DNA of 32,000 nucleotides from an uncultured archaeon (GTDB taxonomy: Archaea; Asgardarchaeota; Thorarchaeia; Thorarchaeales; CAZPUN01). A program made the position numbers and the translations under genes. Shown piece after piece: positions 5,425 to 9,761 of this stretch; the first letter of the stretch is position 1; each line of letters starts with the position of its first letter. The stretch lies in assembly GCA_964589775.1 (NCBI GenBank), contig CAZPUN010000020.1, forward strand, positions 1-32,000. Direction: 5' to 3'. The notes under the pieces are model-generated. The model worked only from the letters and a program-made list of their open reading frames with translations. It was not told the origin of the DNA and ran no database searches.

Positions 5425-7743
5425 CTATTTCAAATAAAGACCCAGCGTTAGAATTGCCCCGCAATACGCACATTTTACTGGACGCCCGGAATGTAGTTTT
5501 TCAACATCAAGTTCAGACAAATTACCACCGCAATACAAGCAAGTCCAAGCATCGATACTTTCACCAAGTTCATCAATAGTTATGGGCAACATAGCAACAT
5601 CTTCGCCAACTGCTTCCACATCAACTTTTGTAGAAGAACCGGTTGCGGGTCCAGAAATGGTTATGACGATACCTACAGGCTTCCCAGTATTCTTTCCTTG
5701 TGCATAACCACGTATTATGCCTACATAATCGCCACCTGCTTCTCGCTCTTCGGTACTGATTATGTGAAAGTTTTTAGTAGGCAACAGAGCTTCAGTCTTA
5801 GTAAAAAGCACTCGAGCATTCCAATCCACCATTACACTTTCGCCAAGCTTGTTTAGATTCTGAATAATTTGATTAAATTCATCCACGGTCTTTTCAACAG
5901 GTCTTAGTAATTCGCATACTGAACGAATAACATATGGGTCTAGCTCGATTGTATGTAGTTCGTCCTTATAATCCATATAACTAACGACTGCAACAATCTT
6001 GCCCTCTACACAATCCTTAGTCGGGAAGAATTCAAATAGTAATCCCCGCATGCCCCCAACTTCAATACGATTTATCGTTCGCATTTTCTCATCTTTAAGG
6101 CTGAGAGATTCTTCAGGATAAGCTACAATAGATGCTGTGACATTTGTAATAACATAAGGGCTTTTGTTGAATATTTTAATTTTATAATCGAATTTTCCGC
6201 CGACAAGTTGTAGACTTTGTGATACGAAAACTTTCTCAGTATCTTTAGGATAATAATCTTCAATTTTAGGAGTGGATAAATCTGGAGTTTTTTCAATAGG
6301 TGTAATTTCTTCAGGAGTTTCGGTTTCTACTTTTTCTTCTTTCTCTCGTTCAGATAATATTGATTTATCAATAAGTTCTTCATGCTCCTTATCAACCTCA
6401 CTAACTAACTCCTTCATTGATATTGGAACTGATGCCTTAAATTCACCACAAACCGTACAAATCAATCGTAGTTCAAGATGACCTCCGGATTCTTTAATTT
6501 CAACAGCATCTAGAGGCTTACCACATTTAGGGCATGTCATAATACGTTTAATTAGATCTTTTTTAGAAACATCATCAAGGTCTTTCGAAAAATATCGCTT
6601 GCCCTTATGGCCATTACTACAGAATACTGATACTTCAATAAGGCTTTTTTCTTCAGATATATTACTGATGCTTAAAGGTTGACTGCATACTGGGCAAGTC
6701 ATAGATCGAGCTATACGTTCAAGATGGTCTGTGCGATTATTTACATCAAATATTGCAGGTAATAATATCGAAGGAATTTTTCTTCGAATTTGCTTGTGAA
6801 TAGGGCAAGATAAAGTGATATCAACATCATTCCCATGAGATTTATAATCTGAAATAATTAGCGAATTCCAACAATATGGACAAATCATAAAGTGCTTTGC
6901 AATTGATTCATATATTTTAGGCGATGAATCTACTGGAAGAATCCTACGTACATTATGATGATTCTCACAAACTCCAGAAACTCGAATTGCACCTTTTTTC
7001 ACAGAAATATTTTTAATAGCAATATCGGAGCCACATTTTTTGCATCGAAATATATCATCAATAAATTCAGAATCATCTATCGAACGACCAATAGATTCGG
7101 CTAAAGCAACCAAATCGGAAGGAATTTTTTTCTTAAATAATCCATGCTTAGGACAATTTAATATTAATTCGGATTCGTCATCACCTTTACGAATATCTAC
7201 TAATTGCGAAGGCATGCCACAGGAGTTATGATAGAATATCTGTCGCAAAACAAATTTGAGTGTATTTTCAGATACATTCTTGCTAATGAACCTTTCCAAG
7301 ACCTGTCGATTGTGAAGTACTATAAGATGATAGTATGAATTCTTTTCGCGAATATCTCTGACAATAAAGGGGCGTGAAGAACCAAAGGGTGTGAAGCTCT
7401 CAATGATACTAGTATCCGGATCCATAGATGCAAAAACAAAATTTAACATGGGGATTATGCTTTCCGGAACATCTTTCTCAACTGGACCATGAATCGGGCA
7501 TAAGAGGTGTATTTCACTATTACGACCTTTTCTAGCCCCAATAAAATCCATTGTCTTGCCGCATTTTTCACATAAGAATAAACCTTTCATAACTTCATTA
7601 AGAACTTCAGTTTTAGTATCACGGCTAAGTTGTCGCTTTGCAAAATGACCATTTAAGCATATAGTCTCAAATTGTAATACATTTCCCTTTATTCTGATTT
7701 TGCGAATTGAAATCGGTGAATCACAGATATGACACTTTAATAT
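5425..7743 (-). CDS. Multi-zinc-ribbon repeat protein (8 repeats) + acidic linker + Ig-like/platform module + C-terminal C4 zinc finger
   Basis: The track starts at 7590, but the frame stays open upstream to TAG at 7758-7756 and encodes another full repeat (ILKCHIC...CLNGH). AGGAGG lies 8 nt before ATA at 7743. Repeats are CxxC-x~20-CxxH/CxxxH. Confidence 0.85.
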   Translation of the reverse strand: MLKCHICDSPISIRKIRIKGNVLQFETICLNGHFAKRQLSRDTKTEVLNEVMKGLFLCEKCGKTMDFIGARKGRNSEIHLLCPIHGPVEKDVPESIIPMLNFVFASMDPDTSIIESFTPFGSSRPFIVRDIREKNSYYHLIVLHNRQVLERFISKNVSENTLKFVLRQIFYHNSCGMPSQLVDIRKGDDESELILNCPKHGLFKKKIPSDLVALAESIGRSIDDSEFIDDIFRCKKCGSDIAIKNISVKKGAIRVSGVCENHHNVRRILPVDSSPKIYESIAKHFMICPYCWNSLIISDYKSHGNDVDITLSCPIHKQIRRKIPSILLPAIFDVNNRTDHLERIARSMTCPVCSQPLSISNISEEKSLIEVSVFCSNGHKGKRYFSKDLDDVSKKDLIKRIMTCPKCGKPLDAVEIKESGGHLELRLICTVCGEFKASVPISMKELVSEVDKEHEELIDKSILSEREKEEKVETETPEEITPIEKTPDLSTPKIEDYYPKDTEKVFVSQSLQLVGGKFDYKIKIFNKSPYVITNVTASIVAYPEESLSLKDEKMRTINRIEVGGMRGLLFEFFPTKDCVEGKIVAVVSYMDYKDELHTIELDPYVIRSVCELLRPVEKTVDEFNQIIQNLNKLGESVMVDWNARVLFTKTEALLPTKNFHIISTEEREAGGDYVGIIRGYAQGKNTGKPVGIVITISGPATGSSTKVDVEAVGEDVAMLPITIDELGESIDAWTCLYCGGNLSELDVEKLHSGRPVKCAYCGAILTLGLYLK

Positions 7744-7840
7744 TTTGGTGGCCTCCTACAAAGTTACATAAATATATGACGAAAAAATAAAATAATACTT
7801 TGCTCTAGTGCATTAGTTGTAAATTAAAATGGTGACTATC

Positions 7841-8653: not shown

Positions 8654-9733
8654 TTACAAAATCGCAGTATCTTCAATTATGTTCCCCAATAATTCAAGAT
8701 GACGTAACAGCACACGTTCATTTCTTGATGAAGTACGATAATGTCGGGCTATAATTTGTAGAACATATTCCGGGAAAAATACTACGATCTCAGGCTGTGC
8801 AAGTAGTGCTGTATAAGTTATCTTATTAACTTCCAGATCAATGATCATATTTGCATTTCGTAAAGCACGTAGTGCAATATTAAACGTACTTTTATCCAAG
8901 CCTGACTCATCCAATAATTGTTTAATTGGCATAGGTCGCTTTTTTAAAGCCTCAAGTATAGGCCATATAGAAGGTCTAGATAATAAATTAATTAATTCAC
9001 GCTCATCATTATCATCTGGAGTGTACCACGAGAAGAATTTCTTTACAACTTTAAGATATTTTTTATATAATTGCTTATTTCCAGATTCTTTTGACCATAA
9101 TAGCGCTTCATATGGGGGAAGACGTATGAAAAACAAGTCACGAATTAAATATACATTTTCAGTTGGTGAATTTCCAAATCGTTCAACCTGAATTAGACCA
9201 CATTTAGCTAAAGGCGCAAGAACTTCATGAATATCAACAACAGAAGTTTGTGTGCTTTCCTGTATCCATAGTGAAATTTGCCCAGAGGTGGAATTTGCAT
9301 TATTTCGGAGATACTCTAAAATTAGCTTTGAATAAGTAGCACTCATAGCATCCGCAAGTTTTTGTGCTTTTGTAAGAGGAATATCTTTATGAAGTGTTTG
9401 AAGTAAATAAGATATATCAGGTAGTTTATTTTCAGTTTCAAGAGTGTCGAAAATTATTGATGCCACACCCATAAGTGAGTTTTTGTATGATTCATAATCT
9501 TCAGTAGAGTCTAAAACGACACATACGAGACGATCTTCATGCACTCCATCGAAACACGATAAAACAGGTCCTATTTTCGTATCTGTAATCCTTATTTCGC
9601 CCTCTTTGAAACTATGAGATGCATAGATTTTCACAAGATCTTCTGCACTTATCATTATATCGTTTGGATATTTAGCTTCAAGAATCGTACCCAGAGTGTC
9701 GTCCCATCTTAAAATAAAAATTGCGCGTGGCAA
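8654..9733 (-). CDS. Longin/uDENN-like N-terminal domain fused to winged-helix domains (NPRL2/3-like architecture)
   Basis: GGAGG RBS then TTG at 9733 giving MPRAIFILRWDDTLGTILEAKYP (resembles the uDENN/NPR2 'F-D-xxx-G-P-x5-P' start). Two wHTH-like segments (ILEYLR...LAPLAKCGLIQV; ILEALK...LRALRNANMI). Confidence 0.6.
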   Translation of the reverse strand: MPRAIFILRWDDTLGTILEAKYPNDIMISAEDLVKIYASHSFKEGEIRITDTKIGPVLSCFDGVHEDRLVCVVLDSTEDYESYKNSLMGVASIIFDTLETENKLPDISYLLQTLHKDIPLTKAQKLADAMSATYSKLILEYLRNNANSTSGQISLWIQESTQTSVVDIHEVLAPLAKCGLIQVERFGNSPTENVYLIRDLFFIRLPPYEALLWSKESGNKQLYKKYLKVVKKFFSWYTPDDNDERELINLLSRPSIWPILEALKKRPMPIKQLLDESGLDKSTFNIALRALRNANMIIDLEVNKITYTALLAQPEIVVFFPEYVLQIIARHYRTSSRNERVLLRHLELLGNIIEDTAIL

Positions 9734-9761
9734 GCTTAGGCCTCCCCTCAAATTTTGATTT

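Follow-up and report, generated by a model that had tools for sequence, protein, structure and literature searches.

The stretch of DNA that was analyzed (the window) comprises the first 32,000 nucleotides of contig CAZPUN010000020.1 from an uncultured archaeon of the Asgard order Thorarchaeales (assembly GCA_964589775.1). It contains a minus-strand gene for a protein of 772 residues, in which an array of eight predicted zinc ribbons is followed by a hinge, a two-lobed domain resembling the appendages (ears) of vesicle-coat adaptors, and a terminal zinc ribbon. The parts of the gene are listed in Table 1.

Residues 1-445 were divided into eight zinc ribbons of 54-62 residues each, which form four A-B didomains with a spacing of 114-116 residues between like units. 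The four didomains, and likewise the eight single units, could be aligned almost gap-free. Smith-Waterman scores between units were compared with those of 300 shuffles per pair. Pairs among A1, A3 and A4 reached z 12.2-14.9 and B-B pairs z 9.6-14.2, with 0 of 300 shuffles as high, and A-B pairs were mostly below z 6.3 (maximum 8.7). Unit A2, which lacks ligands, scored z 5.1 against A4 and 2.7 against A1, a weak but detectable likeness to the A type. Profiles for each unit were also built from 31 homologues and compared by hhalign raw scores (58-96 between A units, 48-82 between B units and 23-45 between the types), from which the A-B alternation holds family-wide. All units are mutually homologous, and the A and B types are distinct across the family. 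No DNA-level tandem repeat was found beneath the array, and the duplications are therefore old. An earlier note, made from the letters of this DNA alone, had described eight repeats in strict A-B alternation, grouped as four didomains. The alternation was confirmed by the motifs, the shuffle z-scores and the unit profiles, and the didomains by the gap-poor alignment, the shuffle scores and the hhalign profiles; the self-alignment that the note had proposed was significant for within-type pairs (z 9.6-14.9), with the exception of the third unit, A2.

The minus-strand frame is open throughout between a TAG (7756-7758) and its stop (5425-5427). In the list of open reading frames the first canonical start is ATG 7590, which gives 721 residues, and a start at ATA 7743 gives the 772 residues considered here. 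Public gene calls begin at ATG 7590 and, in the close relative L001, at an internal TTG. Unit A1 lies 5' of the first ATG, and the first zinc ribbon is missing from the public gene calls because the start codon is ATA. The L001 orthologue (78% identical), whose locus is syntenic with that of the window gene, has the same layout of TAG, AGGAGG, 8 nt and ATA-TTA-AAG-TGY. Nucleotide changes between the two genes in the upstream unit are mostly synonymous: 47 of the 51 codons of the upstream region could be compared, and these are 89% identical, with 0.076 nonsynonymous substitutions per site (dN) and saturated synonymous sites. The column of ATA 7743, three codons before the first cysteine, is also the start column of 30 homologous genes, which have GTG, TTG or ATG there in 29 cases and ATT in one (L028). 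Because of the shared layout, the low upstream dN and the exact coincidence of the start column, ATA was taken as the start codon, and unit A1 is predicted to be translated from it. Over the whole gene dN against L001 is 0.142 and the synonymous rate (dS) is saturated; where dS could be measured, which for single units covers about half of them (the others have saturated synonymous sites), dN/dS was 0.03-0.12, indicating purifying selection.

Seven of the eight units follow the pattern CxxC, 20-21 residues, then Cx2-3H/C, with four Cys/His ligands each. The homologues (n = 31) have Cys3His at all eight units, and the ligands were kept in 29-31 of 31 at seven of them; one alignment row was without Cys4 because the L001 reference began four codons late, at His5. 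Two ligands of the window protein differ from 29 of the 31 homologues, the first of B2 (His here, Cys there) and the fourth of B4 (Cys here, His there). At the position of A2, the C, C, C and H are retained in 29/31 homologues and were lost in the lineage of the window. A2 is also the fastest-evolving unit (52% identity and dN 0.33 against the orthologue), close to the rate of the hinge. The AlphaFold2 model nevertheless gives A2 the same strands (127-154) and helix (159-170) as the other units, with a pLDDT (predicted local distance difference test) of 79-94 for this block. The third unit had been said to have lost its ligands while keeping its spacing; this was found to be so, and the predicted fold is kept too. 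In the 758-residue proteins of a sister family the degenerate unit is not A2: A3 is without its first Cys and often without its His, and zinc sites were therefore lost independently. For this copy eight metal sites are well predicted, seven of them within the array and the eighth in the terminal ribbon. Their behaviour is that of structural and not of catalytic or redox sites, because A-type sites are lost singly by lineage while the predicted fold and spacing persist.

Table 1. Parts of the array gene within the window. Residue numbers count from the ATA start codon.
Feature	Residues	Positions	Strand	Remarks
Whole gene	772 codons + stop	5425..7743	minus	Eight-ribbon array, hinge, appendage-like domain, terminal ribbon
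Shine-Dalgarno-like AGGAGG		7752..7757	minus	8 nt 5' of the ATA start codon (7741-7743)
Unit A1	1-54	7582..7743	minus	C4, C7, C29, H33 (CHIC..CLNGH)
Unit B1	55-114	7402..7581	minus	C58, C61, C82, H85 (CEKC..CPIHG), then two helices
Unit A2	115-168	7240..7401	minus	Four ligands lost (P, S, L, Q instead)
Unit B2	169-230	7054..7239	minus	H172, C175, C197, H200 (HNSC..CPKHG)
Unit A3	231-284	6892..7053	minus	C234, C237, C259, H262/263 (CKKC..CENHH)
Unit B3	285-346	6706..6891	minus	C288, C291, C313, H316 (CPYC..CPIHK)
Unit A4	347-400	6544..6705	minus	C350, C353, C375, H379 (CPVC..CSNGH)
Unit B4	401-445	6409..6543	minus	C404, C407, C429, C432 (CPKC..CTVCG)
Acidic Pro/Thr/Glu-rich hinge	446-500	6244..6408	minus	Net charge -10, poorly conserved
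Ig-like beta-sandwich subdomain	501-610	5914..6243	minus	AlphaFold2; Foldseek/VIA matches to AP2, COPI and GGA ears
Platform (TBP-like) subdomain of the appendage-like module	611-731	5551..5913	minus	
Terminal C4 zinc ribbon	732-772	5428..5550	minus	CLYC..CAYC

In the AlphaFold2 model of the array (pLDDT 88) each unit consists of a knuckle, three strands and a helix. Two knuckles (CxxC and CxxC/H) enclose a beta-hairpin, and they precede strand 1 and lie between strands 2 and 3 of a three-stranded antiparallel sheet, as in a zinc ribbon. The NrdR zinc ribbon was the best of the closest structural matches, which also included a ribosomal protein. For the whole 470-residue array, Foldseek against the PDB returned only meaningless matches (propellers and sliding clamps, template modelling (TM) score about 0.1). 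Pfam and NCBIfam scans of the 772-residue protein gave no family at the cut-off and only assorted small ribbons below it; two relatives exceeded the whole-protein cut-off of Trm112p, and one of them also that of DUF723, by the sum of weak matches with no single-domain hit. PDB sequence and profile searches with the array or a didomain (E up to 10) returned nothing, and the language-model feature search of the Atlas produced nothing beyond zinc-ribbon look-alikes below the threshold (scores up to 0.85). In the Pfam, NCBIfam and PDB searches, then, no named repeat family covers the array, as the earlier note had supposed. Its comparison of the B type with the N-terminus of tetraether-synthase-like radical SAM enzymes gained no support: no Radical_SAM or Tes match was obtained in Pfam, NCBIfam, the PDB or the fold matches, and the CxxxCxxC motif of the radical SAM cluster is absent from the protein sequence. 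No tetraether-synthase chain appeared in the PDB searches (E up to 10) or among the top fold matches, although a short motif could escape these.

The hinge is 60% identical to that of the orthologue (dN 0.30), and pLDDT in the array model drops to 58 in the last block, at the hinge. The C-terminal module was modelled by AlphaFold2 from 60 sequences (pLDDT 93.4). The model shows an Ig-like beta-sandwich followed by an alpha/beta platform lobe, the order of an adaptor ear, and its top Foldseek matches were the COPI and AP2 appendages (E 8.6e-11 to 1e-8, probability 1.00). Neighbours of the ear in the Atlas included gamma-COP and beta-adaptin among eukaryotes and, among archaea, a Methanobacteriota cluster, an Asgard UFL1/DDRGK/PCI-plus-ear cluster and a Thorarchaeota HEAT-repeat cluster. 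None of the Pfam appendage families (Alpha_adaptinC2, B2-adapt-app_C, COP-gamma_platf and others) matched at E up to 1, and the predicted relation to ears is visible by fold only. The terminal ribbon is 100% identical to that of the orthologue, its four cysteines are invariant in 60 homologues, and weak matches to Zn_ribbon_9, LysW and RpoP-type ribbons were obtained.

An exhaustive search of 1.84 billion representative proteins gave 383 matches, of which 150 were listed, and nearly all of those listed cover only residues ~500-772. In most of 40 relatives scanned, the ear-plus-ribbon module sits ~25-60 residues after a hydrophobic, transmembrane-like segment, and ahead of this segment the four long relatives examined with Pfam have SBBP propeller, beta-helix, PKD or TSP3 domains. 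The module is therefore usually predicted to be a cytoplasmic tail. In the window protein the zinc array stands where those relatives have their outer part. Other layouts were also seen. Proteins P0005-P0009 (~700-790 residues) have two tandem, complete ear-plus-ribbon modules after a helical N-terminus and no zinc array. In the Thorarchaeota cluster of the Atlas (~407 residues), HEAT_2 repeats occur in 80% of members and the model aligns with the ear at TM 0.49. Such a protein may combine a HEAT trunk with an ear, a layout nearer that of true adaptins.

A word-indexed protein search gave 2-3 array proteins, and the family emerged from exhaustive searches of representative proteins and of genomes; a related-locus search in genome contigs gave no match. 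The array occurs also in a 758-residue protein (37% identity, full length) and in ~615-residue proteins (24-26% identity; one has 544 residues), and all of these relatives match it in unit order, one unit to one. Among 400 Asgard genomes searched, the full collinear array was present in 69 of the 86 that represent the sister family, which belongs to the same Asgard order, and none was found in the other families sampled. Sister-family array genes are often paired, with a 758-residue and a ~615-residue form adjacent on the same strand. The tail of the 615-residue form is homologous to the platform lobe and terminal ribbon of the 758/772-residue form (hhalign 96.6%, E 4.9e-10). The window genome (96.75% complete) belongs to a family of the order distinct from the sister family and has a single array copy.

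Proteins with a single didomain (~155-260 residues, typically ~165) were found in at least 6 other Asgard families (for example in 19/19, 6/6 and 46/135 genomes), with E 1e-10 to 1e-19 against one array didomain. In each, a single A-B didomain is followed by a Pro/Gln-rich low-complexity linker and a small C4 ribbon. About 90 such clusters were present in a collection of 5.8 billion proteins, under records of Promethearchaeota, Odin-, Heimdall- and Helarchaeota, and the bacterial matches in that search cover the terminal ribbon only. Precomputed Pfam annotation likewise covers only the C-terminal ribbon of the stand-alone proteins (Zn_Ribbon_1/DZR). Stand-alone didomains matched array units with hhalign probabilities of 92-98%, and in the Atlas structure search didomain 3 matched a 162-residue cluster with TM 0.69 over 104 residues (predicted models), so that A and B are predicted to pack against each other in the same way in both. 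On these comparisons the didomain is the evolutionary unit, occurring by itself in other Asgard lineages, and as far as the sequence matches go it is found only in Asgard archaea, in several classes. Three stand-alone didomain proteins (L041, L042 and L043) have transmembrane helices at the N-terminus that would anchor the didomain in the membrane. In another Asgard family, a protein of 587 residues (L046 2989-4737, genome G124) combines an A-B didomain and further CxxC ribbons with the same ear-plus-ribbon, and looks like an independent combination of didomain and ear.

For the genomic neighbourhood, sister-family array genes lie next to syntenic genes for an ABC transporter, a PadR protein, DUF2070, a flavoprotein, an HD-associated protein and an M28 peptidase, and the genes next to the stand-alone didomain genes are conserved within one family only. 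A small membrane protein with several hydrophobic segments and an acidic Glu/Lys-rich tail is encoded upstream of the array genes at 6 of 11 sister-family loci (for example L054 10891-11379, minus, the same strand as the 758-residue and 615-residue genes) and could belong to the same operon; one query of the window genome did not recover it. In the window, two genes away from the array gene, 8654-9751 (minus) encodes a protein of 365 residues with no Pfam match, for which the earlier note had guessed a longin and a winged-helix domain. This gene adjoins a CN-hydrolase gene, as it does in the close relative (L001 7929-9008) and not in the sister family. An ESCRT-III (Snf7) homologue is encoded on contig C20 (59943-60449), ~28 kb past the window; two more lie on contig C23 and a Vps28-like gene on C64, none of them near the array gene.

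From a domain architecture that is either observed or well predicted, we infer binding and partners as follows. The protein is, on balance, probably a soluble, cytoplasmic, Asgard-specific scaffold or adaptor, composed of a metal-stabilised trunk for protein docking, a hinge and an ear that serves as a hub. The array would be a fixed platform with several protein-binding surfaces, and the acidic flexible hinge would connect it to the two-lobed adaptin/COPI-appendage-like domain with its C4 cap. The ear would be the hub, contacted by partner domains or by short peptide motifs. This order of repeat trunk, hinge and ear would resemble the large subunits of eukaryotic adaptors, except that the trunk is made of zinc ribbons and not of an alpha-solenoid, and the protein may dock into a cytoplasmic network that is also addressed by the ear-plus-ribbon tails of many predicted Asgard membrane proteins. 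Four points weigh against this interpretation. Metal binding, rigidity and the overall shape of the array are predictions only; the neighbours of the array gene are housekeeping genes conserved by synteny only, among which no functional partner was seen; several well-assembled, near-complete genomes of the same order are without a match, so that the array protein is probably dispensable; and the window genome has only one clear ear-bearing gene, so that the membrane-tail network seen elsewhere may be absent from this organism.

The earlier note had left it open whether an elongated, metal-stabilised scaffold would bind protein or nucleic acid. The metal-stabilised scaffold remains the best reading, and the nucleic-acid option is the weaker one in view of the array charge and the tether to an ear, a domain beyond the coordinates that the note had considered (6400-7743). 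Under that option the array would bind RNA or DNA in the manner of tandem zinc-finger arrays, and the ear would recruit factors to the nucleic acid. In its favour, nucleic acids are frequent ligands of zinc ribbons, the NrdR ribbon and a ribosomal protein rank highest among the structural matches, and the window protein has basic A-type units (pI 8.5-10.2) and a net array charge of +13. Across the 31 homologues, however, this net charge runs from -3 to +18 and the B-type units are acidic or neutral, which speaks against a conserved nucleic-acid-binding surface. No helix-turn-helix, KH, OB or other nucleic-acid domain was found in the Pfam and NCBIfam scans of the protein, the array is fused to a domain type known for protein-peptide contacts, and the membrane helices of some stand-alone didomains also count against this option, which we regard as unlikely though the strongest of the competing explanations.

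A bolder form of the scaffold interpretation, in which array, hinge and ear together do in archaea the work of an adaptor large subunit, with a rigid trunk of four didomains that binds cargo or membrane proteins and an ear that recruits accessory factors, is doubtful, and slightly more so than binding to nucleic acid. In adaptors the hinge leads to an alpha-solenoid trunk within a heterotetramer; the hinge is present here and the trunk differs. Lower again in probability is that ubiquitin-like modifiers or ESCRT cargo are bound by the eight ribbons acting as a multivalent receptor. Ubiquitin is a ligand of some zinc fingers in eukaryotes, the window genome encodes the three Snf7 homologues and the Vps28-like homologue given above, and in Makarova et al. 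2024 (PMC10936438) a role analogous to ESCRT-0 is suggested for ear-containing Asgard multidomain proteins. Against this, the ubiquitin family (PF00240) had no match in the 96.75%-complete genome, which weakens a ubiquitin-receptor role; ESCRT genes adjoin the array gene neither here nor in the sister family, and Pfam showed neither Vps28-C nor a steadiness box in the protein. Least probable is that the Cys3His sites bind iron or another redox metal in a rubredoxin-like carrier, metal store or sensor, the thought that underlies the earlier note's tetraether-synthase comparison: CxxC..CPxHG-type motifs can form rubredoxin-like sites and eight predicted sites per chain would fit, but single sites are lost in different lineages while the unit is retained, which is the behaviour of structural sites, Pfam and NCBIfam showed no domain of the radical SAM, ferredoxin or oxidoreductase kind, the PDB gave no such match at E up to 10, and no redox genes are consistently adjacent.

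Classical zinc ribbons, such as the NrdR N-terminus and the zinc beta-ribbon clan with Trm112p and Zn_ribbon_recom, have Cys4 sites, whereas those of the array are Cys3His. The array ribbons add one (A) or two (B) extra helices, and two diverged types are fixed as an A-B didomain, four of which stand in succession. The stand-alone Asgard zinc-ribbon proteins (155-195 residues) have a core that aligns gap-free to each array didomain and, like the window protein, end in a small C4 ribbon, which in them stands after a low-complexity linker; they differ in having one didomain and not four, no ear, and a B-like CPxHG knuckle in the first unit. Their name, 'zinc-ribbon domain-containing', derives from the C-terminal Zn_Ribbon_1/DZR match only, and the A-B zinc didomain is an unannotated module hidden beneath this generic label. 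If the bolder, adaptor-like reading is right, the didomain would be an Asgard-specific protein-recognition module and a new family. Arrays of C2H2 fingers of the TFIIIA type offer an analogy, as they too use many small metal-stabilised modules to form an extended recognition surface. Their fingers are beta-beta-alpha units of ~30 residues, compared with a ribbon plus helix of 54-62 residues in the array; the ligand spacing is different, the array has no conserved basic charge, and there is no homology.

Appendage domains are protein-interaction hubs, and ears in archaea, including fusions of ears in Asgard archaea, are described in two sources (Makarova et al. 2024, PMC10936438; Liu et al. 2020 preprint, 10.1101/2020.10.19.343400). 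The Asgard multidomain ear proteins reported there are likewise Asgard-specific ear fusions proposed as hubs, and the UFL1/DDRGK/PCI-plus-ear cluster that neighbours the ear in the Atlas is of this described kind. Their fusion partners are Vps28-C, a steadiness box, longin, a UFM1-ligase region and GOLD, and in the window protein the partner is the zinc array; a term search of both sources returned no mention of an eight-ribbon array or an A-B didomain. Since the protein is soluble and modular it would be a practical bait in a search for partners, and the partners of array and ear would reveal whether Asgard cells possess an adaptor-like docking network. Compared with the ears of AP2 alpha/beta2, AP-4 beta, COPI beta/gamma and the BBSome (GAE-platform), that of the window protein has 8-16% identity in structural alignments, its lobes stand at a different angle (root-mean-square deviation of 9-15 A with both aligned), it is capped by a C4 ribbon, and its trunk is a zinc-ribbon array and not an alpha-solenoid. 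The ear fold of vesicle-coat adaptors is joined in this protein to a type of trunk without earlier description, in a copy of the trunk-hinge-ear layout. If the bolder reading of a working adaptor counterpart is correct, recruitment through ear hubs would have been set in Asgard archaea on several interchangeable trunks (zinc ribbons, HEAT repeats and receptor tails) before adaptors with a fixed alpha-solenoid arose.

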